Below, in pieces: positions 2,617-58,593 of a stretch of 64,000 nt of DNA; position 1 is the first letter of the stretch; the number at the start of each line of letters is the position of its first letter. Made by a program: the position numbers and the translations under genes. Location of the stretch: positions 1,581,961 to 1,645,960 of the forward strand of contig OZ244031.1 in NCBI GenBank assembly GCA_965215045.1. Reading direction: 5' to 3'. Source of the stretch: Gammaproteobacteria bacterium (GTDB lineage Bacteria; Pseudomonadota; Gammaproteobacteria; JABABF01). Under the pieces are notes generated by a model. The model saw nothing but the letters and a program-made list of their open reading frames with translations, ran no database searches and had not been told where the DNA came from.

Positions 2617-2633
2617 GAACCGCAGCGTATTGA

Positions 2634-4673
2634 ATGGGCGTGAGCGTCCATTGTCGTGCTGCGGTGTTCCGGCGTTATTGCCGGGGCCAGGGGGTACTGG
2701 TACTGCTGTTGGCAACCGGCACCTGGCTTCCCCTGCCGGTGGCGGCACAAGCGGCACCGGAGCGTCCCTACCGGGTCACCGAGGAGCGCGCCCCGTGCCG
2801 CGACTACCGTCCGCAAAAACAGCTGTTCTGGGGGGATACCCACGTGCACACGGCGTTCTCTGTCGATGCGGGCCTGCAGGACACCCGCAACCGGCCGGCA
2901 GATGCCTACCGCTATGCCCGGGGCGAGCGCCTGGGACTGCAACCGTACGATGAGCAGGGGCGCCCGCTGCGTTTTTCGCAGTTGCGGGAACCGCTGGATT
3001 TCACCGTCGTCAGCGACCATGCCGAAAATTTGGGCATGGTCGCCGTGTGCACGACACCGGGTTACAAGGGGTATGACTCCTTCACCTGTACCTCCTTCAG
3101 AAAACGACCGCGTCTGTCCTATTTTTTCAGTGCCGGCATGACGCTGGGCAGCCGCTACCTGGCCGAGCGTTACTCGTGGCTGGGTTTCCTGGGAAAACTG
3201 ACGGACCCGAACCGGCCACCGCCGGCCCTGTGCGGGGAGGACGGCCGGGACTGCCGGCAATTGCGCCGGGCCCGCTGGCGGCAGATCCAGGAAGCGGCGG
3301 AGGCGGCCTATGATCGCAGCCCCGCCTGCAGTTTCACTTCTTTTGTCGGTTACGAGTGGACCGGGAACGAGGCGGTGAACCTGCACCGCAACGTGATCTT
3401 CCGCAATCGCAATGTCACGGAGCGGCCGATCAGTTACATGGATGAGAGTACCCCGGAGAAGTTGTGGCAGGCCCTGCAAAGCGAGTGCCTGGAGGCGGGC
3501 AAGGGCTGTGACGTGCTGGCCATTCCGCATAACTCCAATCTCAGTGACGGCCAGATGTTCCGGCCCTGGACGGGCGGTGCCGGCGATTACAGCCCGGGGC
3601 AGGCGCGCCTGCGCGTGCGCATCGAACCGATGTTCGAGATCATGCAACACAAGGGCGATGCGGAATGCTGGTACGGGGTGGGAGTCCGGGATGAATTCTG
3701 CGCCTTTGAAAAGCTGCCCTACGATCGCTTCGTCGGCCGGTTTTTCCGCGGTCTGCGCGAGCATCCCGAACCCCGCGATGGCTATGCGCGGGACATCCTG
3801 GCCCAGGGCATGCGCTATTTTCGGGGCATCGGCGTCGATCCCTACCAGGTGGGTTTTATCGGCAGCAGCGATACGCACCTGGGCACGCCGGGGGCGGTGG
3901 AGGAGACCGGCCACCAGGGCCACGGCGGTGCCGGCAAGATGAGTTTTGGCGAAGTGCAGCCGGGTCTGCCGGATGACCTGGAGTACAACCCCGGCGGACT
4001 GGCGGCGGTGTGGGCGGAGGAGAATACGCGCGATTCGCTGTTTGCGGCACTGCGTCGGCGCGAGGCCTACGGCACCAGCGGGCCGCGCATCCGGCTGCGT
4101 TTTTTCGGCGGCTGGAACTATGACCCGCAGCTGTGCAGCCGTGAGCTGCGGGAACTGGTCGCCCAGGGCTATGCGCGGGGTGCGCCGATGGGCGGCGTCC
4201 TGGAGGCGGCAGCGGACGGTGCGCGCCCGGGTTTCGTGGTCGATGCCTGGCGCGCCGCCGGCGGGGAGGATGCACCGCTGCAGCAGCTGCAGATCATCAA
4301 GGGTTGGCTCGATGCCCGGGGCCGGGCGCAGGAAAAAATCTACACGGTGGCGGGCGATCCTGACAACGGGGCCGGCGTGGACCTGGCGACGTGTCGGAGA
4401 CGGGGCAGCGGCTATGACCGCCTGTGCCAGGTGTGGCAGGACCCCGATTTCGAGAGCGGGCAGCAGGCGTATTATTACGCGCGGGTGCTGCAGAACCCGG
4501 GCTGCCGCTGGAGTGCGCACATCTGCGCAGCGCATCAAGTTGACTGCAAACGGCCCCAGACCATCACCGAGGGCCTGGAGGGCTGCTGTGCACGGGAGCA
4601 CCGGCCGGTGATCCAGGAGCGGGCCTGGAGTTCGCCGATCTGGTATCGTCCCGCCGCCCGGGCCGCGCGCTGA
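2634..4673 (+). CDS. Secreted DUF3604-like protein, paralog 2
   Basis: 679 aa, same conserved blocks as paralog 1 (FWGDTHVHTAFSVD, DFTVVSDHAE, IPHNSNLSDG...). Signal-like N-terminus ends VAAQAA. Starts 18 nt after paralog 1. Confidence 0.8.
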   Translation: MGVSVHCRAAVFRRYCRGQGVLVLLLATGTWLPLPVAAQAAPERPYRVTEERAPCRDYRPQKQLFWGDTHVHTAFSVDAGLQDTRNRPADAYRYARGERLGLQPYDEQGRPLRFSQLREPLDFTVVSDHAENLGMVAVCTTPGYKGYDSFTCTSFRKRPRLSYFFSAGMTLGSRYLAERYSWLGFLGKLTDPNRPPPALCGEDGRDCRQLRRARWRQIQEAAEAAYDRSPACSFTSFVGYEWTGNEAVNLHRNVIFRNRNVTERPISYMDESTPEKLWQALQSECLEAGKGCDVLAIPHNSNLSDGQMFRPWTGGAGDYSPGQARLRVRIEPMFEIMQHKGDAECWYGVGVRDEFCAFEKLPYDRFVGRFFRGLREHPEPRDGYARDILAQGMRYFRGIGVDPYQVGFIGSSDTHLGTPGAVEETGHQGHGGAGKMSFGEVQPGLPDDLEYNPGGLAAVWAEENTRDSLFAALRRREAYGTSGPRIRLRFFGGWNYDPQLCSRELRELVAQGYARGAPMGGVLEAAADGARPGFVVDAWRAAGGEDAPLQQLQIIKGWLDARGRAQEKIYTVAGDPDNGAGVDLATCRRRGSGYDRLCQVWQDPDFESGQQAYYYARVLQNPGCRWSAHICAAHQVDCKRPQTITEGLEGCCAREHRPVIQERAWSSPIWYRPAARAAR

Positions 4674-4677
4674 GTCG

Positions 4678-6693
4678 ATGCGCCGGTCCCCGCAGCTCCT
4701 GCCGCAAGGGAGTGTCCTGGTACCGCTGTTGGCGGCCTGTGCCTGTGCCGTCCTGCCGGTTGCAGCGCAGTCACCGGAGCGGCCGTACGCGCTCACCGAG
4801 GCGCGCGAGCCCTGCCGCGATTACCGCCCGCAAAAACAGCTGTTCTGGGGCGATACCCACGTGCATACGGCTTTTTCCTTCGATGCCGGCATCTATGGAA
4901 CCCGCAACCGGCCGGAAGATGCCTACCGCTATGCCCGCGGCGAGCGCCTGGGATTGCAGCCCTACGATGCGCAGGGCCGGGCACTGCGTTTTTCGCAATT
5001 GCGGGAACCGCTGGATTTCACCGTGGTCAGCGACCATGCCGAAGGTCTGGGCATTGCGGGTGTTTGCGGCGTGCCGGGCTACGAGGGCTATGACTCCTTC
5101 ACCTGCACCTCCTACAGGGAACGGCCGCGTCTTGCGCGTTTCCTGATGTTGCAACTCCCGCTCATTCGCCGCCACCTGGCCGAGCGTTACTCGTGGCTGG
5201 GTTTTCTGAAAAGACCGGAGGTCCGGGTGCGAGAGCCGCCCGCCCTGTGCGGGGAGGGGGGCAGGGACTGCCTGCAGGGCGGCCGGGAAATCTGGCGGCA
5301 GATCCAGGAAGCGGCAGAGCGCGCCTACGACCGCACTTCCGCCTGCCGTTTCACTTCTTTTGTCGCTTATGAGTGGACCGGGGATACGCGGGTGAACCTG
5401 CACCGCAACGTGATCTTCCGCAACCGCGAGGTGCTGGCACGGCCGATCAGTTACCTGGATGCGCCTACCCCGGAGGAGTTGTGGCAGGGGCTCCAACGCG
5501 ATTGCCTGGATGCCGGCAACGGCTGTGACTTGTTGGCCATTCCCCACAATGCCAATCTCAGCGACGGCCAGATGTTCCGACCCTGGGAGGGCGATACAAG
5601 CGATGATGCCCTGGCCCGGGCGCAGCTGCGCGCCCGCATCGAACCGGTGTTGGAAATCATGCAGCGCAAGGGGGACTCGGAGTGCTGGTTCGGGGCGGGG
5701 GTAGAGGATGAATTCTGCGCCTTTGAGAAACTGCCCTACGATCGATTTGCCGGAAGAACCTTCCGCAGTCTCGGGGCAGCACCCGAACCCGGCGATGGCT
5801 ATGCGCGGGACATCCTGGCCCGGGGCATGCGCTATTTTCGGGGTCTCGGCGTCGACCCCTACCGGCTGGGTTTTATCGGCAGCACGGATACACACCTGGG
5901 CATTTCGGGGGCGGTGGAGGAGGGCGGCTACCAGGGGCATGGCGACCCCGGGAATACGATACTGGGAAAATTGCCGGCGGCGGGTCTGCCGGATGCCCTG
6001 GAGTACAACCCCGGGGGATTGGCGGCGGTGTGGGCGGAGGAGAATACGCGCGATTCGCTGTTTGCGGCACTGCGTCGGCGCGAGGCCTACGGCACCAGCG
6101 GGCCGCGCATCCGGCTGCGCTTTTTCGGCGGCTGGGACTATGATCCGCAGCTGTGCCAGCAAGGAGTGCAGCACCTGGTCGACCGGGGTTATGCGCAGGG
6201 TGTGCCGATGGGCGGTGTCCTGGAGCCGGCCATGGACGGTGCCCGCCCGGGTTTCGTGGTCGATGCCTGGCGGGCCGCCGGCGGGGAAAACGCACCGCTG
6301 CAGCAGCTGCAGATCATCAAGGGTTGGCTCGATACCCGGGGCCGGGCCCAAGAAAAAATCTACACCGTGGCGGGTGAGCCCCGAAACGGGGCCGGTGTGG
6401 ACCTGGCGACATGCCGGGGACGGGGCAGCGGCTATGACCGCCTGTGCCAGGTGTGGGAGGACCCCGATTTCGAGAGCGGCCAGCAGGCGTATTATTATGT
6501 GCGGGTGCTCCAGAACCCGAGCTGCCGCTGGAGTGCGCGCATCTGCAATGCGCACCGGGTCGACTGCCAGCGGCCCGGGACCATCACCGGGGGACTTGCG
6601 GGCTGCTGTGCACCGGAGCACCGGCCGGTGATCCAGGAGCGGGCCTGGAGTTCACCGATCTGGTATCGTCCCGTCGCCCGGGCACCACACTGA
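4678..6693 (+). CDS. Secreted DUF3604-like protein, paralog 3
   Basis: 671 aa, same blocks (FWGDTHVHTAFSFD, DFTVVSDHAE, IPHNANLSDG). Starts 5 nt after paralog 2. Confidence 0.8.
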   Translation: MRRSPQLLPQGSVLVPLLAACACAVLPVAAQSPERPYALTEAREPCRDYRPQKQLFWGDTHVHTAFSFDAGIYGTRNRPEDAYRYARGERLGLQPYDAQGRALRFSQLREPLDFTVVSDHAEGLGIAGVCGVPGYEGYDSFTCTSYRERPRLARFLMLQLPLIRRHLAERYSWLGFLKRPEVRVREPPALCGEGGRDCLQGGREIWRQIQEAAERAYDRTSACRFTSFVAYEWTGDTRVNLHRNVIFRNREVLARPISYLDAPTPEELWQGLQRDCLDAGNGCDLLAIPHNANLSDGQMFRPWEGDTSDDALARAQLRARIEPVLEIMQRKGDSECWFGAGVEDEFCAFEKLPYDRFAGRTFRSLGAAPEPGDGYARDILARGMRYFRGLGVDPYRLGFIGSTDTHLGISGAVEEGGYQGHGDPGNTILGKLPAAGLPDALEYNPGGLAAVWAEENTRDSLFAALRRREAYGTSGPRIRLRFFGGWDYDPQLCQQGVQHLVDRGYAQGVPMGGVLEPAMDGARPGFVVDAWRAAGGENAPLQQLQIIKGWLDTRGRAQEKIYTVAGEPRNGAGVDLATCRGRGSGYDRLCQVWEDPDFESGQQAYYYVRVLQNPSCRWSARICNAHRVDCQRPGTITGGLAGCCAPEHRPVIQERAWSSPIWYRPVARAPH

Positions 6694-6703
6694 GGATCAT
6701 GTA

Positions 6704-8725
6704 ATGATGAATCGACATTCGCATCCCCTGCCGCTGAGCGGTATCTCGGTACTGCTGCTGGGGGCGTTCGCCTGGGCCTCCCCGCCGCTTGCAGCACAGG
6801 CACCGGAGCGGCCGTACACGATCACCGAGGAGCGCGAGCCCTGCCGCGATTACCGTCCGGAAAAACAGGTGTTCTGGGGCGACACCCACGTGCACACCGC
6901 GTACTCTTTTGACGCCTCTATGTGGGACACGCGCAATGACCCGGACGACGCCTACCGCTTCGCCCGGGGCGAGCCGGCGGGCATCCTGCCGTATAGCGAA
7001 CAGGGCGAGGCACAGCGCTGGGTGCAATTGCCCCGGCCGCTGGATTTTGCCATGGTCTCCGACCATGCCGAGCACCTGGGGCGCATCGATATCTGCGCGC
7101 GCAAAGACCTGCTGGGGTACTATTCGATCAACTGCAGGATCTTTCGCGGCCGCCCGCAACTGAGCTTTTTCACCAACCTGGCGATGCCGCTGATTCTGAA
7201 GGAACTCACGCTGCAGAACGATAATTGGCGCTTCCTGAAAAAGTTGTTTCGCGCCGAACAACCGCCGCTGTTCTGCGGCCCTGACAACCGGCGCTGTTAC
7301 GAAGCCGCGCGGCCGGTCTGGAAGCGCATCCAGGCGGCGGCGGAGCGCGCTTACGATCGCAGCACCGCCTGCCGTTTTACTTCTTTTGTCGGCTATGAAT
7401 GGACCGCCTACACCGGCGGCAATATTCATCGCAACGTGGTGTTCCGCAATGAGCGGGTGCCGGCGGACCCGATCAGTGCCAACGAGGCCCCCGAGGCTCC
7501 CGGGCTGTGGCGGGCCTTGGATCGCGAGTGCATCCAGGGGGTTCCCGGTTGCGATGTGCTGGTCATCCCGCACAACAGTAACGTGAGCCGGGGGCTGATG
7601 TTCCCCGACCCGGGCGGGGAGCGCACCGCACCGCACAACCCGCGCACCGCGGTGCTGAGTGCCCGTTTTGATCGCCTGTTCGAGATCATGCAGCACAAGG
7701 GCGATTCCGAGTGCTGGTACGGACAGGGGATCGCCGATGAACTGTGCGCCTTTGAGAAGCTGAGTTACGACGCCCTGGGTGCCCAGATCAGCCCGCGCTT
7801 TGCCATCCCCAGTCATCCCAGCGATGGTTTCCTGCGCCCCGTGCTGTCGTCGGGCCTGGTCTACCAGCGGCAATTCGGCGTCAATCCCTACCGCCTGGGC
7901 GTGATCGCGAGCACGGACAATCACCTGGGCACGCCGGGTTCGGTCGAGGAATACAATTTTGTCGGGCACACGGGCATCTCTGCCAACAGGAATTTCCAGA
8001 ACATGAGTGCCGGTCTGCGCCTGCCGGATTCGCCGAACTTCAATCCCGGCGGGCTGGCGGCGGTGTGGGCGGAAGAGAATACGCGCGACTCGCTGTTTTC
8101 TGCGATGCGCCGCCGCGAGACGTACGGCACCAGCGGCCCGCGGCTCGAGGTGCGCTTTTTCGGCGGTTGGAACTATCCCGCAGACTTGTGTCGCAACCCC
8201 GACTGGGTGAAGGAGGCGTATGCGGGCGGGGTGCCGATGGGCGGTGTCCTGGCCGCGGATGCCGCACTCGGAACCGCCGCTGCACCGCGCTTTTTGCTGT
8301 ATGCGCGTCGCGACCCGGGTGTCGCCGGGCATCCGGGTCTGCCGCTGCAATACATGCAGCTTATCAAGGGCTGGGTAGATGAGCGGGGCACCGCACAGGA
8401 GAAGGTCTACGACGTCGCCGGCAACCCCGACAGCGAGGCCGGGGTGGACAGTGACTGTCGGCCGCACGGTGCGGGATACCAGCGGCTGTGCCAGGTGTGG
8501 AGCGACCCGGACTTTGATGCGGGGCGCGATGCCTGGTACTACGCGCGCGTGTTGCAGAATCCGAGCTGCCGCTGGAGTGCTCGCTGGTGCAGTGCGCAGG
8601 GGGTGAACTGCGAGGATCCGGCATCGGTTCCCGCGGGCATGGAAGCCTGTTGTGCAGCGGATCATCGCCGGGTGATCCGGGAGCGGGCCTGGACTTCGCC
8701 GATCTGGTACCAGGCGCAGCCGTGA
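6704..8725 (+). CDS. Secreted DUF3604-like protein, paralog 4 (most divergent)
   Basis: 673 aa with the same core motifs (FWGDTHVHTAYSFD, DFAMVSDHAE, IPHNSNVSRG, MQHKGDSECWYG, C-terminal CCAADHRRVIRERAWTSPIWY). Signal-like N-terminus. Confidence 0.8.
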   Translation: MMNRHSHPLPLSGISVLLLGAFAWASPPLAAQAPERPYTITEEREPCRDYRPEKQVFWGDTHVHTAYSFDASMWDTRNDPDDAYRFARGEPAGILPYSEQGEAQRWVQLPRPLDFAMVSDHAEHLGRIDICARKDLLGYYSINCRIFRGRPQLSFFTNLAMPLILKELTLQNDNWRFLKKLFRAEQPPLFCGPDNRRCYEAARPVWKRIQAAAERAYDRSTACRFTSFVGYEWTAYTGGNIHRNVVFRNERVPADPISANEAPEAPGLWRALDRECIQGVPGCDVLVIPHNSNVSRGLMFPDPGGERTAPHNPRTAVLSARFDRLFEIMQHKGDSECWYGQGIADELCAFEKLSYDALGAQISPRFAIPSHPSDGFLRPVLSSGLVYQRQFGVNPYRLGVIASTDNHLGTPGSVEEYNFVGHTGISANRNFQNMSAGLRLPDSPNFNPGGLAAVWAEENTRDSLFSAMRRRETYGTSGPRLEVRFFGGWNYPADLCRNPDWVKEAYAGGVPMGGVLAADAALGTAAAPRFLLYARRDPGVAGHPGLPLQYMQLIKGWVDERGTAQEKVYDVAGNPDSEAGVDSDCRPHGAGYQRLCQVWSDPDFDAGRDAWYYARVLQNPSCRWSARWCSAQGVNCEDPASVPAGMEACCAADHRRVIRERAWTSPIWYQAQP

Positions 8726-17477: not shown

Positions 17478-17561
17478 AACTCTGCTCCTATGGTGATATT
17501 GCAGAAAAAACCTTCTTAATCATAGCAAAATAAAAACTTTTTGACATCCCCCTGAAAATAC

Positions 17562-17790
17562 GCCCATCGTGGCCCCCGCGTACGGGGGCGATGAATGCTT
17601 GGGAGCAGCGCGCACCGGGGCCGCCCATCGTGGCCCCTGCGTACGGGGGCGATGAATGCTTGGGAGCAGCGCGCACCGGGGCCGCCCATCGTGGCCCCTG
17701 CGTACGGGGGCGATGAATGCTTGGAAGCAGCGCGCACCGGGGCCGCCCATCGTGCGCCCCCGCGTACGGGGCACGGGCGACCCGGTACCG
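17562..17790. repeat. 61-bp tandem direct repeat, 3 full copies plus 1 partial
   Basis: Unit GCCCATCGTGGCCCC(C/T)GCGTACGGGGGCGATGAATGCTTGGGAGCAGCGCGCACCGGGGCC starts at 17562, 17623, 17684 and 17745. Each unit holds the hairpin GCCCCCG-CGTA-CGGGGGC. Confidence 0.9.
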
Positions 17791-28399: not shown

Positions 28400-28585
28400 G
28401 GGAACTTGAGCGAGGCCGCGGGGGAGCGCGCGGTGATTTGACGGCACTGTTTTCTTGGGGAACTGCGGGGGAGCACGCGGTGATTTGACGGCACTGCTTT
28501 CTTGGGGAACTGCGGAGGAGTGCGCGGTGATTTGACGACTGCCTCCCTGGGAAACTGCGGGGGAGCGCACTGCCGGAGGGGGGTG
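28400..28585. repeat. About 47-bp imperfect tandem repeat, 3 copies plus 1 partial, between ftsX and comEC
   Basis: Copies start near 28400, 28457, 28504 and 28549. Shared core GGGAACTGCGGGGGAGCRCGCGGTGATTTGACGRCACTG. Confidence 0.8.
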
Positions 28586-35777: not shown

Positions 35778-36363
35778 GAAACAACGCGTCCTCTTGCCAG
35801 GCGGTGAGTTGTGGAGCTATCCCGGGGCCTTCGCCCGGCAGGCGGATGACTGGCTGCGCGCCTTGCTGGACAAGGTCGCCTGGCGCAGTGAGAAACTGCA
35901 TCTCTTCGGGCGCTGGGTCGAAGCACCGCGGCGCATCGCCTGGTACGGCGACCCGGGTGCCGAGTACTGTTATTCGGGACGCCGTCATGCGCCCCGCCCC
36001 TGGATCGTCCCGCTGCAGGAAATGCGTACCGCGGTCCAAAAGCTGCTGGGGGCTTCTTTCAACAGTGCCCTGCTTAACCTGTACCGCGATGGCAATGACG
36101 CCATGGGCTGGCACAGCGATGATGAGCCGGAACTGCAACCGCGGCCCCTGATCGCCTCGCTGAGTTTCGGTGCCACCCGGCGTTTTGATCTGCGTCCGCG
36201 CGGCGGCGGCGCAATCGTCTCCCTGCAACTGGAACACGGTTCCCTGCTGGTGATGGGCGGCGATACGCAGCGTCACTGGCGGCACCGCGTACCGCGCAGT
36301 GCCCGCTGCCAGGCACCGCGGGTGAACGTGACGTTCCGGCGGGTGCGCGGGGTGCGTGCATGA
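35740..36363 (+). CDS. AlkB-like Fe(II)/2-oxoglutarate-dependent dioxygenase (alternative GTG start at 35767)
   Basis: LYRDGNDAMGWHSDDE...SLSFGATRRFDLR...LEHGSLLVMGGDTQRHWRHRVP matches the HxD...H motifs of AlkB/2OG-FeII oxygenases. Confidence 0.7.
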   Translation: MALCWRSNRVSSEKQRVLLPGGELWSYPGAFARQADDWLRALLDKVAWRSEKLHLFGRWVEAPRRIAWYGDPGAEYCYSGRRHAPRPWIVPLQEMRTAVQKLLGASFNSALLNLYRDGNDAMGWHSDDEPELQPRPLIASLSFGATRRFDLRPRGGGAIVSLQLEHGSLLVMGGDTQRHWRHRVPRSARCQAPRVNVTFRRVRGVRA

Positions 36364-38192
36364 TGCCGGCCGCGGACCGGGACTTCGACTCGCGCCGGCT
36401 GATCGGCGGCCTGCAGGAGCACCCCGGGATCTACCAGATGCTGGACCGCGAGGGCGAAGTGCTGTACGTGGGCAAGGCGCGCAATCTCAAGAAGCGCGTC
36501 GCCAGCTACTTTCAAAAGCGCGCACTGAACCGCCGCACGCTGGCGATGCTGGCGCGCGTGCGGGAGGTACAGGTCACGGTGACCGCCAGTGAGACGGAAG
36601 CACTGTTGCTGGAGCAAAACCTGATCAAGGAATACCATCCGCCGTACAACATCCTGTTGCGAGACGACAAGTCTTATCCCTGCATTCGCCTGTCAGAAGA
36701 GGAGTTTCCGCGGCTGTCTTTTTACCGCGGCGCGCGGCGCAGTGGTGCGCGCTATTTCGGCCCGTATCCCGGCGCGTCGGCGGTGCGCGACAGTTTGAAT
36801 TTTCTCTACCGCACCTTTCGCATACGGCAGTGTGAAAACAGCGTGTTTCGCAATCGTTCCCGCCCCTGCCTGCAATACGAGATCAAACGTTGCAGCGCCC
36901 CTTGCGTCGGTTTGATCAGTGCTGCGGAGTACGCCGAGAGTGTCGCGGATGCCGAAATGTTTCTGCAGGGCAACAACCGCGAGCTGCTCACGGGTCTCAG
37001 CGAGCGCATGGAGTCCGCTGCTGCGGCCGAGCACTACGAACGCGCCGCCGAGTTGCGCGACCAGGTCGCCGCGCTGAACCAGCTTCAGGAAAAGCAGTAC
37101 ATCGAGGGCGAGAAGGGCGATGTCGATATTCTCGCGGCGGCGGCGGCACCGGACTGTGTCTCGGTGCAGATGCTCTACGTGCGCGCCGGCCGTGTCATCG
37201 GCTCGCGCGGCTATTTCCCGCGCCTGCCCCTGGCGGAAAATCCGGGCGAGGCGCTGGCGGCATTTATTCCCGGCTTTTACCTGCGTGCGGCGGCCGAGAT
37301 CCCGCGCAAGATCCTGTTGAGTCACCCGGTGGCCGGCACCCGTGCGCTGGAGGAAGCCCTGGAGCGCCGCGCCAGTCACAAGGTACGCCTGCAATCCCGC
37401 GTGCAGGGTGCCCGACTGCGCTGGTTGCGCCTGGCCCGGGAGACCGCCGAACAGAACTTGCAGGGACGCATGGCGGGCGAGAGGCAGACCATTGCCCAGT
37501 TGCAGGAATTGCGCGAGGCCTTGCAACTGGAAGAGACGCCGCGCCGCCTGGAATGCTTTGATATCAGTCACAGCGGCGGCATAGAGACCGTGGCTTCCTG
37601 CGTGGCTTTTGACCAGGAAGGGGCGCGCAAAAGCGATTACCGCCGTTATATCATCCGCGGTATTGCGCCGGGAGACGATTATGCCGCCCTGCGCCAGGCC
37701 CTGTTGCGGCGCTACCGGCGGGTGCAGACGGGGCAGGGGGGCGCCCTGCCCGACGTGTTGCTGGTCGACGGCGGACCGGGGCAATTGCGCCAGGCGCGCG
37801 AAGTGTGGGACGAGCTGGGACTCGGCGCGGCGGCATTGCTGGGCGTCGCCAAGGGGCGCAGTCGCCGCCCGGGGCGGGAACGCTTGTGGACCGGCTCCGG
37901 GAAGGAGCTCCGGCTGGCACCGGACTCCGGTGCACTGCACCTGGTACAGCGTATCCGCGATGAGGCCCACCGTTTTGCCATCCAAGGGCACCGCCGCCGG
38001 CGCAGTGCCCGCAGTGGGGCCTCGCCGCTGGCGGAAGTCCCCGGCATCGGCCCCAAGCGCCGCCGCATGCTGTTGCGTTCTTTCGGGGGTTTGCAGGGCA
38101 TTCGCAAGGCGGCCCCGGAAGAGATTGCACGCACGCCGGGTATCAGCCTTAAAATGGCCGAAGATATTCTCGCGCACTTGCGGCGCAATTGA
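36360..38192 (+). CDS. uvrC: Excinuclease ABC subunit C
   Basis: N-terminal GIY-YIG (GIYQMLDREGEVLYVGKARNLKKR), UvrBC domain, C-terminal HhH. Confidence 0.9.
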   Translation: MMPAADRDFDSRRLIGGLQEHPGIYQMLDREGEVLYVGKARNLKKRVASYFQKRALNRRTLAMLARVREVQVTVTASETEALLLEQNLIKEYHPPYNILLRDDKSYPCIRLSEEEFPRLSFYRGARRSGARYFGPYPGASAVRDSLNFLYRTFRIRQCENSVFRNRSRPCLQYEIKRCSAPCVGLISAAEYAESVADAEMFLQGNNRELLTGLSERMESAAAAEHYERAAELRDQVAALNQLQEKQYIEGEKGDVDILAAAAAPDCVSVQMLYVRAGRVIGSRGYFPRLPLAENPGEALAAFIPGFYLRAAAEIPRKILLSHPVAGTRALEEALERRASHKVRLQSRVQGARLRWLRLARETAEQNLQGRMAGERQTIAQLQELREALQLEETPRRLECFDISHSGGIETVASCVAFDQEGARKSDYRRYIIRGIAPGDDYAALRQALLRRYRRVQTGQGGALPDVLLVDGGPGQLRQAREVWDELGLGAAALLGVAKGRSRRPGRERLWTGSGKELRLAPDSGALHLVQRIRDEAHRFAIQGHRRRRSARSGASPLAEVPGIGPKRRRMLLRSFGGLQGIRKAAPEEIARTPGISLKMAEDILAHLRRN

Positions 38193-38214
38193 GTCTGGCA
38201 GCGGAGCGATCAAC

Positions 38215-38772
38215 ATGAATTTGCCGATGTGGTTCACGGTATTGCGCATTGCCCTGGTGCCGCTGATCGTGCTGGCGATGCTGCTGTTGCCCGGCTACTG
38301 GGCGGCACTGTTATTCGTATGCGCTGCGCTCAGCGATTGGTTGGACGGCTGGCTGGCCCGGCGTTATGCGCAAGTCAGCCGCTTCGGTGCCTTCTTGGAC
38401 CCGGTGGCGGACAAGCTGGTGATCATCAGTGTGCTGATACTGTTGACGGCGTTTCACCAGACACTGTGGTTTTCACTGCCGGCACTGTGCATTATCAGCC
38501 GGGAAGTGCTGGTGCTGGCATTGCGGGAGTGGATGGTCGAAGTGGGCCGGCGCGCCCCGGTCTCCGTCTCGCGCCTGGGCAAGTGGAAGACCACGCTGCA
38601 ATTTGTCGCGCTGTTGCTATTCCTGCTCCTGGGCCGGGGCGACGAACTGCTGTTATTGCTGACGGCTTACCTGCTGTTGTACGTGTCACTGGTGCTGACC
38701 CTGTGGTCCATGGTCAACTACCTGCGCGCGGCGTGGTCAGAATTGGATTGGAGAGGCGAGCGCAAGCACTGA
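38215..38772 (+). CDS. pgsA: CDP-diacylglycerol--glycerol-3-phosphate 3-phosphatidyltransferase
   Basis: Start at MNLPMWFTVLRIALVP. CDP-alcohol phosphatidyltransferase motif DG.LAR......G...D...DK. Confidence 0.85.
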   Translation: MNLPMWFTVLRIALVPLIVLAMLLLPGYWAALLFVCAALSDWLDGWLARRYAQVSRFGAFLDPVADKLVIISVLILLTAFHQTLWFSLPALCIISREVLVLALREWMVEVGRRAPVSVSRLGKWKTTLQFVALLLFLLLGRGDELLLLLTAYLLLYVSLVLTLWSMVNYLRAAWSELDWRGERKH

Positions 38773-38778
38773 GGAGTT

Positions 38779-40167
38779 TCAATCCGATCGGGCACCCGGT
38801 GTCGTCGCCGCCGGCGATGCTGTAGCGGTGGCGGCAGGGGCTGTATCCAGGTGCCGGCGGTCCCAGCAGTTTTCGTGGTAATGCCGGCTGCCCCGGTAAT
38901 AAAAGAATATGCCGACCAGGTAGCTGAAGAAGGCGGCAGCCAGGCCCCAGCGTATGGAGTTCTTGCCGAAGACAGGATGCGTGAGGTCACTGACCCAGCC
39001 GACCAGGAACGGCCCCAGGCTCAGGCCGATCAGGCTCATGAACAGCATCAAGATGGCGCAGGCCAGGGTGCGTTGCGTGGGTGCCACCAACGCTTGGGCG
39101 GCGACATAAGAGGGGGCGGCCCACCAGGTGCCGACGACACCGGACAGGATGGCGAACAAGGCTGCGACCGGCAGCTGGAACTGGCCGAAAAACAAGTTCT
39201 GCCCCTCCGGCCACAGCAGGAACAGCAGCAGCAGGGGCAGCGACAGTATCAGGCTCAGCATCGGCACGAGCATTTGCCAGGCGCGGTCCCTCATCACCAT
39301 CCGGTCGCAGAGTAAGCCGCCCAGCAGGGAGCCGGCCAGGGCGCTGACCGTGCCCAGCAGACCGACGACAATGCTGGCGTGAAACAGGCTCATTTCATGC
39401 ACGCGGATTAAGAAACTGACCTGCCAGTGCCCGAGTCCGTAACCGGCCAGCGAGGCAAAACCAGCACCCAGCAACAGGGCGCGCATCGCCGGGATATTCC
39501 ACATCTCGCGGAAAGTGCGAAAGGCACCTTGTTGTTCATCGTCTGCCGTCGTCGTTTGCTCATCCCAGTACCCCTTGGCCGGCTCGCGCAGGGTGAAACG
39601 GATCAGCAGGGCGAGCACCAGCCCGGGGGCACCCAGGACCAGGAAGGCCCTGCGCCAGCCGTAATTTTCCGCGATCCAACCGCCGCCGCCGAAAGCGAGC
39701 ATCATGCCGATAAAAGTGCCGCAGGCAAAAATCGACATCGCCGTGGAACGGTCCTTGGGCGGATAATAATCGGCGACCAGGGATTGGGAGGGCGGAGTAC
39801 CGCCGGCCTGGCCGATGCCGACGCCGATGCGGAACAACAGCAGGTGCCAGTAGTTTCCAGCGACCGCGCAGAGCACGGTCATCAGGCTCCATACGCCCGC
39901 CGCCCATGCCAGCACATTGCGGCGCACGCCCCGGTCCGCCCACATGGCCGCCGGAATACTGAGCGTGACATAGAACACGGCGAAGACCAGGCCGTACAGA
40001 ATGCCCATTTGTGTATCGCTGGCCTGGAATTCCTCTTTCATAGGCTCCACGAGCACGGAAAGAAGTTGCCGGTGGAGGAAATTAAAGACGTACGTCAGTG
40101 TCAGGATGCCCAGTGCATAATGCGCATGGGCGCGGGAAATTTCAGTTAAAGATGAATCTGTGCGCAC
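38779..40167 (-). CDS. MFS transporter
   Basis: 462 aa, 12 TM, with MFS signature regions (GRRNVLAWAAGVWSLMTV..., second half repeat). Confidence 0.75.
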   Translation of the reverse strand: MRTDSSLTEISRAHAHYALGILTLTYVFNFLHRQLLSVLVEPMKEEFQASDTQMGILYGLVFAVFYVTLSIPAAMWADRGVRRNVLAWAAGVWSLMTVLCAVAGNYWHLLLFRIGVGIGQAGGTPPSQSLVADYYPPKDRSTAMSIFACGTFIGMMLAFGGGGWIAENYGWRRAFLVLGAPGLVLALLIRFTLREPAKGYWDEQTTTADDEQQGAFRTFREMWNIPAMRALLLGAGFASLAGYGLGHWQVSFLIRVHEMSLFHASIVVGLLGTVSALAGSLLGGLLCDRMVMRDRAWQMLVPMLSLILSLPLLLLFLLWPEGQNLFFGQFQLPVAALFAILSGVVGTWWAAPSYVAAQALVAPTQRTLACAILMLFMSLIGLSLGPFLVGWVSDLTHPVFGKNSIRWGLAAAFFSYLVGIFFYYRGSRHYHENCWDRRHLDTAPAATATASPAATTPGARSD

Positions 40168-40234
40168 AAGAGCTCCCGGAAAACAAGTCTGCAGACTGCT
40201 AAAATAACACGTTATGTGATGCGGTGCTTTCCCG

Positions 40235-40308
40235 GGCTGGATGGCAGAGTGGTTATGCAGCGGACTGCAACTCCGTGTACGCCGGTTCGATTCCGACTCC
40301 AGCCTCCA
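40235..40308 (+). tRNA. tRNA-Cys (anticodon GCA)
   Basis: Acceptor GGCTGGA/TCCAGCC plus TCCA. Anticodon arm GCGGA-CTGCAAC-TCCGT, T-loop TTCGATT. One C-A mismatch in the T stem. Confidence 0.8.
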
Positions 40309-40328
40309 TATTTGCCGCGCTCTCTAAG

Positions 40329-40512
40329 CAGGGGGGAGTGGAAAGCAGAGGGGGAGTGGAAAGCAGAGGGGGAGTGGAGAGCAGGGGGGGAGTGGAGAGC
40401 AGGGGGGAGTGGAGAGCAGAGGGGGAGTGGAAAGCAGAGGGGGAGTGGAGAGCAGAGGGGGAGTGGAAAGCAGAGGGGGAGTGGAAAGCAGAGGGGGAGT
40501 GGAGAGCAGGGG
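40329..40512. repeat. 18-bp G-rich tandem repeat, about 11 copies, between tRNA-Cys and tRNA-Leu
   Basis: Unit GGGGGAGTGGA(A/G)AGCAGA, with occasional 17/19-bp variants. The G5-7 runs recur every 18 nt on the + strand. Confidence 0.9.
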
Positions 40513-40596
40513 GAGCATGAAAACAGCATGCCGGGCGGGTGGTTTGATTTTCCTGGCACCGGTGATGAGAGGCACAAGAGTAGCCTGGCAGTGAAC

Positions 40597-40683
40597 GCCC
40601 GGGTGGCGAAATTGGTAGACGCAGGGGACTTAAAATCCCCGGACTTGCAAGTCATGTCGGTTCGAGTCCGGCCCCGGGCACCA
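40597..40683 (+). tRNA. tRNA-Leu (anticodon TAA), long variable arm
   Basis: 87 nt, GCCCGGG...CCCGGGC-ACCA. Anticodon arm GGGGA-CTTAAAA-TCCCC. Same cysT-leuZ order after pgsA as in E. coli. Confidence 0.9.
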
Positions 40684-40741
40684 GGAACGGGCGGGGAATG
40701 CTCCCCGGCTCGCAAGACCCCGGCTATATGATGCTGGCGTT

Positions 40742-41000
40742 GAGTATAGGGCTTGGGATTGGTTTATATATACGCTGTCGTTTAGTATAGGGCTAGGGAT
40801 TGGTTTATATATACGCTGTCGTTTAGTATAGGGCTAGGGATTGGTTTATATATACGCTGTCGTTTAGTATAGGGCTAGGAATTGGTTTATATTATTCTAT
40901 CGTTTAGTATAGGGCTAGGGGTTGGTTTATATTATTCTATCATTTAGTATAGGGCTTGGAATTGGTTTATATATACGCTATCGTTTAGTATAGATATTGA
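40742..41000. repeat. 41-bp AT-rich tandem repeat, about 6.5 copies
   Basis: Unit GTTTAGTATAGGGCTAGGGATTGGTTTATATATACGCTGTC at 40742, 40780, 40821, 40862, 40902 and 40942, with a partial copy to about 41000. Copies 4-5 carry the variant TATTATTCTATC. Confidence 0.9.
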
Positions 41001-41060
41001 AATTTTATGCTATTATGTGTTATCTACAATCATTTTCCTCCAAACACGGGTCTGAGCAAA

Positions 41061-42254
41061 ATGGCAGAGCATCCACAAGCAAGCTCTCCCGATCGGGAAC
41101 GCACCGGCCGCTATGTACAGCAGCCACAGGGATACCGCGCTTTTATCCCCAGGGCATTGCCTCCCGATCCCCCCTTGCGGCTCAGCCCGGGGATGCAGCA
41201 ACTGCTCTCCCAAGCGGACCGTGCCCTGGGGCGGCTGAGTGGTTCCGCGGGGGTATTGCCCAGCCTGGGTTTGTTTGTCTACGAGATGCACGTGCGCAAG
41301 GAGGCGGTGTTATCCAGCCGGATCGAGGGAACCCGGAGTTCCCTGCAGGATTTGCTGATTGCCGAGGCCGGCGTGCTCCCATCCGGGCGTCCCGATGATG
41401 TCGCCGAAGTCACCAATTATGTGCGGGCTTTCAACTATGGTCTGTATCGACTGGAGGAGCTTCCCGTGTGTGTTCGGCTATTATGCGAAATGCACGAGCT
41501 CTTGCTGCAGGGGGTGCGGGGGGCCCCGGCCCGGCCCGGGCTGCTGCGCGAGTCTCAAAATTGGCTCGGGCCCGCCGGGTGCGATCGGAGCGAAGCCACT
41601 TTTATACCTCCTCCTCCCGCCGAGGTGCCTGCCGCCCTGGGGGAGCTGGAAAAGTTTCTGAATGCCCCAGGCGGCTTACCCCCACTGGTCTGGATTGGCC
41701 TGGCGCATGCCCAATTTGAAACCATTCATCCCTTCCTGGATGGCAATGGGCGCCTGGGCCGCCTGCTGATTAGCTTGCTGCTGGCGCAACAGCAGATCTT
41801 GCAAAAGCCGGTTCTCTACCTGTCGGATTATTTTTATCGCCACCGCTTGGAGTACTACGATCGTCTCCAGGCCGTACATGAGCAGGGCGACTGGGAAGGA
41901 TGGATCGAATTCTTTCTGCAGGGGGTCGCCGATGTGAGTCAGGATGCGGCCGAAACCATTCAGCACATCTATGCTCTGCGTGAAAAACATCGTGCTGAGA
42001 TTAATATGGCATTGGGGCGGGCTGCCGGCAACGGGCTGCGTATCCTGGAGTTCCTTTACTCGCAGCCGCTGTTCACCGTGCCCCGGGTGCAGGGACACCT
42101 GGGTGTCAGTTATGCATCGGCCAATCAACTGGTATCGCGCCTGGAAAAATTGGGGATCCTGGAGGAAATCAGTGGCCGTAAACGCAATCGCGTGTACCGC
42201 TATTCCTCTTACCTGGAACTCTTTGAAAAAAATCCTCCGCCGAACCAGGCCTGA
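41061..42254 (+). CDS. Fic family protein (class-II-like; putative AMPylating toxin-type enzyme) with C-terminal winged-helix region
   Basis: Start at MAEHPQ. Fic_N-type N-terminus (YVQQPQGYRAFIPRALPP), inhibitory-helix motif SSRIEG (S/TxxxE(G/N)), catalytic motif HPFLDGNGRLGR. Confidence 0.8.
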   Translation: MAEHPQASSPDRERTGRYVQQPQGYRAFIPRALPPDPPLRLSPGMQQLLSQADRALGRLSGSAGVLPSLGLFVYEMHVRKEAVLSSRIEGTRSSLQDLLIAEAGVLPSGRPDDVAEVTNYVRAFNYGLYRLEELPVCVRLLCEMHELLLQGVRGAPARPGLLRESQNWLGPAGCDRSEATFIPPPPAEVPAALGELEKFLNAPGGLPPLVWIGLAHAQFETIHPFLDGNGRLGRLLISLLLAQQQILQKPVLYLSDYFYRHRLEYYDRLQAVHEQGDWEGWIEFFLQGVADVSQDAAETIQHIYALREKHRAEINMALGRAAGNGLRILEFLYSQPLFTVPRVQGHLGVSYASANQLVSRLEKLGILEEISGRKRNRVYRYSSYLELFEKNPPPNQA

Positions 42255-42272
42255 AGGCCGGGGGTGCTGTGC

Positions 42273-42824
42273 TTATTGGCCCGCCGGGCATCCCTCTGCG
42301 TCACAATCGTCGGCCGGGTGCTCCGGTGCCAGGTTTTCCGTCTGCTCCTGTGCCGGTTCTTCTCGCAGCAGTGCCATGATCTCTGCGCCCAGTTCCATGT
42401 CCTGCACGGCACCGAATTTCTGTTTCCTGCATCTTCCCTGGCGGTCGACCAGGATTTGCGTCGGCGTGCCCTGCATCCCGTAAGCGGCCATGGTTTGCGG
42501 GATGCCGCCTCCTTGGGCGGGTGCATCGATGCCGACCGGAAAGAAAATGCGGTATTCGTGCAGGAAGGCCTCCAGGGCTTGGCGGCTGCCCTGGGCGGCG
42601 TGGTGTTCGAATACCGTGTGCAAGCCGATGACCGTGACTTCGTCCTGGCGGAAGGTCTGGGCGACGCGCCCCGCCTGGGGCAGGGCATGCGATACGCAGC
42701 CCGGGCAGAGCATCTGGAAAGCCTCGATCAAAACGACCCGGCCGCGCAGTTCCCGCAGGGTGCAGGGGCGATCGGTATTCAGCCATTCGCTGGTTTGCAG
42801 TTCCGGGGCGGGTTTGAATGCCAT
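42273..42824 (-). CDS. TlpA/ResA-like thiol-disulfide oxidoreductase (thioredoxin fold, CPGC)
   Basis: 183 aa with a redoxin-like VVLIEAFQMLCPGCVSHALP CxxC motif. Confidence 0.65.
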   Translation of the reverse strand: MAFKPAPELQTSEWLNTDRPCTLRELRGRVVLIEAFQMLCPGCVSHALPQAGRVAQTFRQDEVTVIGLHTVFEHHAAQGSRQALEAFLHEYRIFFPVGIDAPAQGGGIPQTMAAYGMQGTPTQILVDRQGRCRKQKFGAVQDMELGAEIMALLREEPAQEQTENLAPEHPADDCDAEGCPAGQ

Positions 42825-42956
42825 GGCGGTATTTCCAAGGGCGCGGTTCGTGTCTCGCGGGGACGGGCGTTGCCGGGGGACCCAGGGGCTGTTTTGCCGC
42901 CTCCCGGGGCCCCCGAATTATAAGCCCGGAACCCCCGTTTCCGATGCCGGGGAAAA

Positions 42957-42984
42957 TTGACATTGATTCTTTCCCTGTTATAAA
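42957..42984 (+). promoter_or_regulatory. S10 operon sigma70 promoter (TTGACA-16 nt-TATAAA)
   Basis: TTGACA at 42957..42962 and TATAAA at 42979..42984, upstream of rpsJ. Confidence 0.55.
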
Positions 42985-42996
42985 CTATTTCACCTT

Positions 42997-43052
42997 TTGC
43001 CCCGCCAGCCTGACCTCCAGACAGGGGAGGTCGGGGCGGGGCTGTATACATT
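42997..43052 (+). promoter_or_regulatory. S10 leader GC-rich hairpin followed by a T-run (putative L4-responsive attenuator)
   Basis: GCCCCGCCAGCCTGACCTCC-AGACA-GGGGAGGTCGGGGCGGGGC then TGTATACATTTTTAAAC, immediately before rpsJ. Confidence 0.4.
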
Positions 43053-43072
43053 TTTAAACCCGGAGCTCCCCC

Positions 43073-43399
43073 GTGGAAGGAGAACAGCGGATACGCATAC
43101 GGTTGAAGTCGTTCGACCACCGTATCATCGATGCCTCGACGCGCGAGATCGTCGAGGCGGCGCGGCGTACCGGTGCCCGGGTCCGCGGGCCGATTCCCCT
43201 GCCGACGCGCAAGGAGCACTACACCGTGCTGATCTCCCCGCACGCGGACAAGGATGCGCGCGACCAGTATGAAATACGCACTCACAAGCGTCTGCTCGAA
43301 ATCGACGTGACGCCGCAGACCATTGACGCGCTGGCGCAACTGGCCCTGCCGGCCGGTGTAGACACGCAGATCAAAACTTTTGGCAAGGACGAGAAATAA
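43073..43399 (+). CDS. rpsJ: 30S ribosomal protein S10
   Basis: [52 protein letters not shown]. Confidence 0.95.
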
Positions 43400-45879: not shown

Positions 45880-46176
45880 ATGCCGCGCTCACTGAAAAAA
45901 AGTTATTTTGTCGATATCCACCTGATGCAAAAGGTGCAGGAGGCGCAGGACAAGAAAGACAAGCGTCCGATTCGCACGTGGTCGCGTCGTTCCATGGTCG
46001 TGCCGACCATGGTCGGCTTGACGATCGCGGTGCACAATGGCCGTGACCACGTGCCGATCTTCATCACCGAGGAGATGGTGGGACACAAGCTGGGAGAGTT
46101 TGCACCGACCCGCACCTTTCGCATGCATTCCGGTGACCGCCAGGCCAAGGGTGTCGTCGAGAAGAGGAAGCAGTGA
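45880..46176 (+). CDS. rpsS: 30S ribosomal protein S19
   Basis: Start at [19 protein letters not shown]. Confidence 0.9.
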
Positions 46177-57897: not shown

Positions 57898-58593
57898 ATG
57901 CCAATTTACGAATACAGCTGTTCACACTGCGCCCATGAGCTGGAAGCCCTGCAGGCGATGGGTGAACCGCTGCTGGTTAAATGTCCCGCCTGCGGTGAGA
58001 GGAAGCTGCAGAAAAAACTGAGTGCCGCCGCCTTTCATCTCAAGGGGCAGGGGTGGTACAAGACGGATTTCCAGGACCAGGGGAAAAAGAACGCCGCAGA
58101 AGGCGCGGATGCCGCCGGCACCGGGGATGCAAAAGAAGATGCCGCACGGTCTGCGGCCGCCCAAGCCGGTGAGCGCGGCGATGGTGCCTCTAGGGCTGGT
58201 GAGCGCGGCGATGGTGCCTCTAGGGCTGGTGAGCGCGGCGACGGCAACTCTCGGGCAGGCGAGCGCGGCGATGGTGCCTCTAGGGCCGGTGAGCGCGGCG
58301 ATGGTGCCTCCCGGGCCGGCGAGCGCGGCGATGGCAGCTCTCGGGCCGGTGAGCGCGGGGATGGTGCCTCTAGGGCCGGCGAGCGCGGCGATGGGGCCTC
58401 TAGGGCCGGTGAGCGCGGGGATGGCAGCTCTAGGGCCGGTGAGCGCGGCGATGGCAGCTCTCGGGCCGGTGAGCGCGGGGATGGTGCCTCTAGGGCCGGC
58501 GAGCGCGGCGATGGCACCGCGACTGTAAACAACAGCACCCGGGAGACGTCCTCCCGCTCCTCCGGAAGCGACTCCCAGGGCGCCTCCGCCTGA
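57898..58593 (+). CDS. FmdB-family zinc-ribbon protein with 12x decapeptide (AGERGDGASR) C-terminal repeat tail
   Basis: MPIYEYSCSHCAHELEALQAMGEPLLVKCPACGERKL is the FmdB CxxC...CxxC zinc ribbon. This is followed by 30-bp in-frame DNA repeats across 58165..58525. Confidence 0.75.
   Translation: MPIYEYSCSHCAHELEALQAMGEPLLVKCPACGERKLQKKLSAAAFHLKGQGWYKTDFQDQGKKNAAEGADAAGTGDAKEDAARSAAAQAGERGDGASRAGERGDGASRAGERGDGNSRAGERGDGASRAGERGDGASRAGERGDGSSRAGERGDGASRAGERGDGASRAGERGDGSSRAGERGDGSSRAGERGDGASRAGERGDGTATVNNSTRETSSRSSGSDSQGASA
58165..58525 (+). repeat. 30-bp near-perfect tandem repeat x12 (in-frame, inside the FmdB-family CDS)
   Basis: Unit GGTGAGCGCGGCGATGGTGCCTCTAGGGC(T/C), with minor variants (GGCAGCTCT, GGCAACTCT). 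Confidence 0.9.

Follow-up and report, generated by a model that had tools for sequence, protein, structure and literature searches.

A stand-alone SoFic-type class II Fic gene with a candidate repeat-array operator beside tRNA-Leu in a gammaproteobacterial genome

We analyzed a 64,000-nucleotide stretch of the forward strand of contig OZ244031.1 (positions 1,581,961 to 1,645,960; Gammaproteobacteria bacterium, assembly GCA_965215045.1), hereafter called the window, and focused on a Fic protein gene on the + strand (41061..42254) together with the AT-rich DNA directly in front of it. The gene follows a tRNA-Leu(UAA) gene (40597..40683, +), from which it is separated by a 41-bp tandem array (40725..40993, +) and a short AT-rich leader (40994..41060, +), and on its other side lie a redoxin gene (42273..42824, -) and the S10 ribosomal protein operon (rpsJ at 43073). 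An earlier note on this DNA had described the locus as a class II Fic protein on an AT-rich islet associated with the tRNA. That note overlooked the named SoFic family, the C-terminal winged-helix domain of the protein, and the putatively regulatory array, which are the subjects of this analysis.

The Fic open reading frame (ORF) ends with a stop at 42254 and encodes 397 aa when read from the ATG at 41061, while the public record places the start at an ATG 54 nt earlier (41007), giving a protein of 415 aa (P0001). Since homologs are ~395-401 aa long and their alignment begins at M1 of the 41061 start, and since the last upstream half-site of the array lies 77 bp before 41061 (the homolog median is 74 bp), we favor the 41061 start and number residues from it. 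Pfam Fic_N (PF13784) matched aa 47-128 with 78.2 bits (cutoff, 26.7), and Pfam Fic (PF02661) matched aa 137-241 with 66.2 bits (gathering cutoff, 24). The catalytic motif H223-PFLDGNGRLG-R234 (HPFLDGNGRLGR; aa 223-234; 41727..41762, +) fits HxFx(D/E)GNGRxxR and is invariant across a 64-homolog alignment except for the variable x at 232, so that the catalytic histidine, whose degeneration was a concern at the outset, is fully conserved. The inhibitory-helix motif SSRIEG (S85-E89-G90; aa 85-90; 41313..41330, +) fits (S/T)xxxE(G/N), and S85, S86, I88, E89, and G90 are invariant in the same alignment. It aligns with SSEIEN of SoFic from Shewanella oneidensis, the motif that contains E73, and an AlphaFold2 model places it at the end of a helix (aa 69-88) that precedes the Fic core within a single chain. 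The internal helix motif and the Fic_N domain make this a class II protein, following the classification that reportedly goes back to Engel and colleagues in 2012. The earlier note was therefore right in assigning the Fic protein to class II and in describing its catalytic motif as complete and its inhibitory helix as internal.

Family searches placed the protein with SoFic. The PADLOC SoFic model (PDLC03963) matched over model positions 5-359 of 361 (E 2.6e-116, 386.9 bits). E. coli Sofic (9vjc) was the best PDB sequence match (E 8.5e-34, aa 33-379), and S. oneidensis SoFic matched at E ~1e-30; crystal structures of SoFic-type proteins are available as 3eqx, 3zcn, and 9vjc. The AlphaFold2 model (predicted local distance difference test score [pLDDT], 84.4; predicted template-modeling score, 0.86) was superposed by Foldseek along its full length, over ~370 columns, on the top matches 3eqx (SoFic) and 7cb8 (a Mycobacterium marinum Fic protein), with template-modeling scores of 0.76-0.82. 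This superposition takes in both an N-terminal helix and a C-terminal winged-helix domain. The N-terminal helix (aa 43-63; 41187..41249, +), modeled with a pLDDT of 92-96, aligns with SoFic residues ~36-52, inside the L28-L50 dimerization helix of that protein, and is a predicted dimerization helix. The C-terminal winged helix-turn-helix domain (~aa 319-390; 42015..42230, +) was recognized from the model, which has a helix-strand-helix-helix-strand order at aa 319-389, from the Foldseek matches, and from sub-threshold Pfam MarR_2 and HTH_13 matches at aa 326-379. The protein matches the SoFic-type architecture of dimerization helix, here a predicted one, plus winged helix. Homologs are plentiful, with at least 8000 proteins at E <= 1e-20. 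Hundreds of them are 60-65% identical and come from Xanthomonadales, Verrucomicrobiota, and other groups; the next-best matches, at ~64%, are scattered over phyla, and a metagenome protein scan returned no relative above 62% identity. The protein is an ordinary member of a widespread, already named, and partly characterized family.

The DNA between tRNA-Leu and the Fic gene (40684-41060) is 39.5% GC compared to 64.4% for the window, so the AT-rich stretch described earlier is real, but it is short. We found that most of it consists of the tandem array, for which Tandem Repeats Finder reported a period of 41 bp, 6.6 copies, and 91% matches, and which occurs once in the window. Within the array, the half-site TTTAGTATAG appears six times in phase, starting at 40781, 40822, 40863, 40903, 40943, and 40984. 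The leader that follows is promoter-proximal and almost unchanged between two strains, with a single difference (41021) from contig L001 of a sister metagenome-assembled genome (MAG), GCA_964348175.1.

In unrelated metagenomic contigs (L087 and L092), homologs are likewise directly preceded by tandem repeats with a period of ~40 bp, built from alternating inverted half-sites. We then counted matches to a half-site consensus, TTTAATATGG, on both strands and with no more than 2 mismatches, in 260 bp around the start codons of 68 homolog loci. The density of half-sites was 6.05/kb around starts and 0.386/kb in the rest of the loci, an enrichment of ~16-fold. At least two half-sites were present in 27 of the 68 loci, and the spacing between successive half-sites on the same strand was 40 or 41 bp in 23 of 33 cases. 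Minus-strand half-sites fell at +23 and -17, which yields a consensus unit of TTTAATATGG-N13-CCATATTAAA-N7. The 68 upstream regions held 107 half-sites, where dinucleotide-preserving shuffles gave 20.3 ± 4.2, and 23 same-strand pairs at 40-41 bp, where the shuffles gave 0.02; upstream regions of 247 neighboring genes, taken as controls, held 39 half-sites and one such pair. The window array keeps the register of the consensus, and both departures of TTTAGTATAG from TTTAATATGG are also seen in other loci. The longest in-phase chain comprises 6 half-sites in the window, 4 in the sister strain, and no more than 3 in the 68 other loci. Since the half-site recurs with 40-41 bp spacing upstream of unrelated homologs, the array is, judging from these sequence comparisons, most probably the Fic gene's own operator, bound by the C-terminal winged-helix domain of its product and amplified at this locus. 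What had been taken for foreign AT-rich DNA is thus more likely regulatory.

We also considered an RNA element in the repeat region and rejected it, since the predicted fold was no better than that of shuffled sequences (z = +1.13); Rfam matched only the two tRNAs. A literature search with the half-site sequence gave only unrelated primer matches, and a metagenome scan with the conserved promoter-proximal 32-mer gave no match. Upstream of a SoFic-type homolog on the Thermus brockianus plasmid pTB1 (L171 1-6988), we observed a short palindrome, TATAACAAGC..GCTTGTTATA.

The sister MAG carries tRNA-Leu (130-216 on L001), repeats, Fic gene, redoxin gene, and rpsJ in the identical order. Identity between the two genomes is 99.1% over the uvrC side of the locus (8.1 kb) and 99.5-100% for five ribosomal genes and the redoxin gene; the latter (99.8%) differs at one nucleotide. 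On the other hand, the Fic gene is only 91.2% identical to the sister allele (of its 1194 nt, 105 differ, as do 49 aa), and the diverged block runs from ~41066 to 42270, where it ends sharply. Synonymous divergence (dS) is 0.168 in the Fic gene and 0.016 in uvrC and a major facilitator superfamily (MFS) transporter gene, a ten-fold difference. The ratio of nonsynonymous to synonymous divergence (dN/dS) has an overall value of 0.40, falls to 0.13-0.18 in the core and winged-helix segments, and is ~1 at aa 59-80 and 146-178, which are parts of the model with lower confidence (10-residue block means of ~60-76). By these sequence measures, the Fic gene is intact and constrained in both strains. 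Since selection on the protein alone is insufficient to explain a ten-fold synonymous excess, the divergence suggests either that a diverged allele was brought in by replacement or that allelic variation at the locus is long-lived, as far as a comparison of two genomes can indicate. A diversity-generating mechanism or mutational hotspot was set aside, as the substitution spectrum is ordinary (72 transitions and 30 transversions) and the changes are spread over the entire gene. Near the end of L001 (~5370-5470, corresponding to 45961-46058 of the window), 14 clustered mismatches, mostly to G or C, are probably an assembly artifact, and we left these contig-end mismatches out of the divergence argument.

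In composition, the Fic gene stands apart from its surroundings. It is 59.6% GC, and its GC content at third codon positions (GC3) is 0.663, 3.2 standard deviations below the mean of 0.770 ± 0.033 for 44 window ORFs chosen with a crude length and GC3 filter. Elsewhere, homologs occur in defense and mobile contexts. Some lie after hsdM, among hsdS, hsdR, AAA_13, WYL, and Eco57I-like genes, and homologs were present on 220 plasmid records, several of them adjoining toxin-antitoxin or restriction-modification genes. On Thermus brockianus pTB1, the homolog has a helicase-related gene on one side and a DUF1156 gene on the other, all in one orientation, and an operon is possible. Since low GC3, a scattered phylogeny, and homolog contexts that include plasmids favor horizontal gain, we consider that a small cassette of operator plus gene was probably gained horizontally beside the tRNA operon.

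Together, these findings lead us to read the locus as a SoFic-type gene for a class II Fic enzyme that stands alone and is accompanied by regulatory DNA of its own, a reading to which we give a probability of roughly 0.6. Characterized relatives suggest what such a gene might do. Stand-alone SoFic was listed among new single-gene defense systems and called common (Millman et al. 2022; bioRxiv 10.1101/2022.05.11.491447). The toxicity of E. coli Sofic is lost when H194 is mutated; the protein requires dimerization and its C-terminal domain and is neutralized by AS1, a 47-aa protein encoded just downstream (PMC12249575). The SoFic dimer AMPylates switch I of EF-Tu, its de-AMPylation is constitutive and needs E73, and the protein also binds the 100 bp that immediately precede its gene; a dual role as a transcriptional and translational regulator has been proposed (bioRxiv 10.64898/2026.07.09.737422). 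CccR, another Fic protein, represses its own promoter via 10-bp inverted repeats, AGATAATCAT-N26-ATGATAATCT (PMC9755527).

By analogy with these proteins, Glu89 on the inhibitory helix would block productive ATP binding and, like E73 of SoFic, may also support de-AMPylation. With His223 as the catalytic residue of the Fic core, the putative dimer would AMPylate an essential host protein, which is EF-Tu (at switch I) for SoFic and FtsZ for CccR. This modification would halt translation or growth and so could provide phage defense of the abortive-infection type, as is thought for the family; the role in growth arrest or defense suggested earlier is plausible on the same grounds. The winged-helix domains may bind the repeated upstream half-sites and thereby keep Fic expression low, and the half-site unit would have been tandemly amplified to six in-phase copies right after an ancestral tRNA pair. 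A broader proposal, which we put forward only tentatively and consider doubtful as a whole, is that the 40-bp-periodic array is an undescribed operator shared by a large SoFic-type subfamily, that its copy number acts as a repression dial, and that the synonymous divergence confined to the gene stems from balancing selection on an immune locus or from an exchange of alleles there.

Several observations weigh against this interpretation or limit how far it extends. The protein scored 147.7 bits against the NCBIfam SoFic equivalog NF046030, and because this is far under the cutoff of 550, it is not a SoFic ortholog; it represents a separate subfamily with SoFic architecture. Its identity to the tested proteins, SoFic and E. 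coli Sofic (EcSofic), is only ~25-30%. No defense genes flank it, as lpxK, kdsB, murB, uvrC, and pgsA lie upstream and the S10 operon lies downstream. With regard to the operator, the window repeat has a degenerate version of the minus half-site, the second in the consensus unit, and the loci used for counting half-sites included some from which the consensus had been read. Among six more distant plasmid homologs, four had a half-site match, with the motif drifted but recognizable. A promoter scan upstream of the Fic gene found no consensus sigma-70 promoter and no convincing terminator. Finally, both alleles have 34-35 departures from columns that are at least 90% conserved, where the family median is 4 and the maximum is 18, and such departures could mean relaxed constraint.

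The strongest alternative, which is possible but which we doubt, is that the locus is an integrative islet targeted to tRNA-Leu, made up of foreign AT-rich filler and, as cargo, the Fic gene, possibly together with the redoxin gene. The Fic gene does adjoin tRNA-Leu, with a spacer of 39.5% GC and a low GC3. A tRNA lies within ~500 bp in 7 of 81 homolog loci, and one SoFic-type homolog is found between two tRNA-Val genes (L148 206-2182), where it looks inserted between tandem tRNAs. In two family-level relatives (UvrC 66% identical), uvrC-pgsA is followed by unrelated genes and no Fic gene, but neither relative has the tRNAs or the S10 operon there either, and rearrangement therefore confounds the comparison. 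Against an islet, the interval from tRNA-Leu to rpsJ contains neither an integrase nor a recombinase gene, its only ORFs with family support being the Fic and redoxin genes, and a search of 40150-43150 for a directly repeated tRNA 3' end found none. Since both hallmarks are missing, a classical integrative island is unsupported. Moreover, the half-site of the AT-rich array is common to unrelated SoFic-type loci, which suggests that it travels with the gene as a control region. The tRNA-associated insertion proposed earlier is plausible as regards composition, the scattered family, and the tRNA-proximal loci, and the earlier observation that no integrase is present was correct, but the attachment repeat expected of such an insertion is likewise absent.

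The redoxin gene argues in the same direction. Its product has a thioredoxin fold with a CPGC motif, and its Pfam matches are marginal (AhpC-TSA, 28.6 bits; Redoxin, 28.3 bits). The earlier note had described it as a divergent TlpA-like redoxin on the other strand, but it is convergent with the Fic gene, the two stops being 18 bp apart, and its GC3 of 0.75 is typical of the window. A scan of representative genomes recovered 80 redoxin loci from other taxa, none of which had an S10 gene or a close relative of the Fic protein nearby, and we rejected a Fic-redoxin module for this lack of linkage. The redoxin gene is a neighbor of the Fic system and not its cargo. In Sphingopyxis granuli (L050 10001-11529), a convergent Fic-like ORF (30% identical) lies ~370 bp from a redoxin homolog; this is the only such case in the 80 loci and is probably a coincidence.

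A second alternative, which we regard as unlikely, holds that the protein is a physiological regulator that reversibly AMPylates EF-Tu or another host protein under stress and also acts as a transcription factor, with no anti-phage role. This is consistent with the constitutive de-AMPylation, dimer-dependent EF-Tu AMPylation, and promoter binding described in the SoFic preprint, with the housekeeping setting directly upstream of the S10 operon and away from defense genes, and with the conserved synteny in the sister strain. However, homologs recur in type I restriction-modification operons, near toxin-antitoxin and other defense genes, and on plasmids. The family-level relatives have no Fic gene at the uvrC-pgsA locus, the GC3 is atypical, and a divergence ten-fold above that of the flanks is unusual for a core regulator.

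It is very unlikely that the gene is an inactive remnant whose sequence is drifting under relaxed selection. The departures from conserved columns and the dN/dS of ~1 at aa 59-80 and 146-178 would fit decay, but neither strain has a disrupted ORF, no invariant catalytic or inhibitory residue has been lost, dN/dS is 0.13-0.18 across the core and the winged helix, the promoter-proximal region is conserved, and the fast patches coincide with the lower-confidence regions of the model. A two-gene toxin-antitoxin pair with an overlooked antitoxin, of the class I FicT/FicA or the Sofic/AS1 type, is barely credible: EcSofic does have AS1 downstream, and in one locus (L003) the homolog is overlapped at its 3' end by an ORF of 81 aa, but the inhibitory helix of the window protein is in the same polypeptide, no antitoxin-sized gene fits into the 18-bp gap before the redoxin gene or into the upstream space occupied by the array, and no small neighbor recurs in the 81 homolog loci, all of which agrees with the earlier statement that no antitoxin gene is evident.

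In the preferred reading of a stand-alone SoFic-type gene with its own operator, the cassette lies directly after an ancestral tRNA pair. It starts just downstream of tRNA-Leu, which was identified by ARAGORN and Rfam and is the positional ortholog of E. coli leuZ. The preceding tRNA-Cys(GCA) gene (40235..40308, +), also found by ARAGORN and matched by the Rfam tRNA model with 57.5 bits, is the positional ortholog of cysT. The order uvrC-pgsA-tRNA-Cys-tRNA-Leu in the window (36360-40683) matches uvrC-pgsA-glyW-cysT-leuZ of E. coli K-12, and since E. coli K-12 has the same order, the tRNA pair is ancestral. Compared to E. coli, the tRNA-Gly gene is missing here, and pgsA is separated from the tRNAs by the MFS transporter gene (38779-40167, -). 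No other match to UvrC exceeds 67% identity, and the named ones, at ~55%, come from Pseudomonadales or Cellvibrionales-like gammaproteobacteria. The spacer between the two tRNAs is filled by an 18-bp G-rich tandem repeat, AAGCAGAGGGGGAGTGGA (40326-40513; 10.6 copies), whose G5 runs recur at 18-nt intervals on the strand that codes for the tRNAs, and the same repeat is found at the start of sister contig L001. Other tandem arrays in the window are located at 17561-17771 (61 bp x 3.4), 28418-28568 (47 bp x 3.3), and 58165-58516 (30 bp x 11.7), and tandem repeats seem unusually frequent for a genome of ~2.1 Mb. The S10 operon comes after the redoxin gene and not after tuf, and the spacer in front of it (42825-43072) has the sole promoter-like site of the scanned region, TTGACA-18-TAAACT (42957-42986). 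Far upstream, at 628-8725, four consecutive + strand ORFs of 662, 679, 671, and 673 aa follow a tRNA-Thr gene.

The gene itself adds little to what is known, as SoFic-type proteins are among the commonest matches of defense-system finders; only the candidate operator and its amplification go beyond routine annotation. Autoregulation in these proteins has so far been described as binding to a promoter fragment for SoFic and as recognition of a different palindrome for CccR. A candidate half-site with 40-41 bp phasing makes the proposed autoregulation of SoFic-type proteins directly testable and offers a handle for any regulon. If the broader proposal made above holds, the copy number of the array would set how tightly a toxin-like defense enzyme is repressed. 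Two strains that are ~99% identical, with different operator copy numbers and Fic alleles 9% apart, could serve as a natural contrast for studying the tuning and exchange of toxin-like immune genes.

Comparison with known systems places the window protein closest to the SoFic-type proteins in layout and sets it apart in detail. Class I modules such as FicT/FicA and VbhT/VbhA, as well as Doc/Phd, share the Fido fold; the first two also share a helix bearing the inhibitory Glu, and Doc also acts on EF-Tu. However, in class I modules a separate antitoxin supplies the inhibitory element, whereas that of the window protein is intramolecular, with no small partner ORF at the locus, and Doc is a kinase with a variant motif. 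The window gene stands alone, like those of EcSofic (9vjc) and of the SoFic system modeled in PADLOC, and its product matches the PADLOC model over the full length, but EcSofic is only ~30% identical and has AS1 downstream, for which the locus leaves no room. SoFic of S. oneidensis (SO_4266/MloA; 3eqx, 3zcn, and 9tch) has the same dimerization helix, class II Fic domain, winged helix, motifs, and AT-rich upstream DNA. It is ~25% identical, and since no operator motif has been defined for SoFic, the upstream elements of the two are not comparable. CccR of Yersinia pseudotuberculosis also joins a Fic domain to a DNA-binding domain at the C terminus, and its dimer represses its own gene via widely spaced AT-rich repeats. 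Unlike the window protein, which has no type VI secretion context, CccR is an effector secreted by a type VI secretion system that AMPylates FtsZ, and its half-sites differ from the TTTAATATGG-N13-CCATATTAAA-N7 unit of the window family, which has a 40-bp period and is present in six copies in the window.

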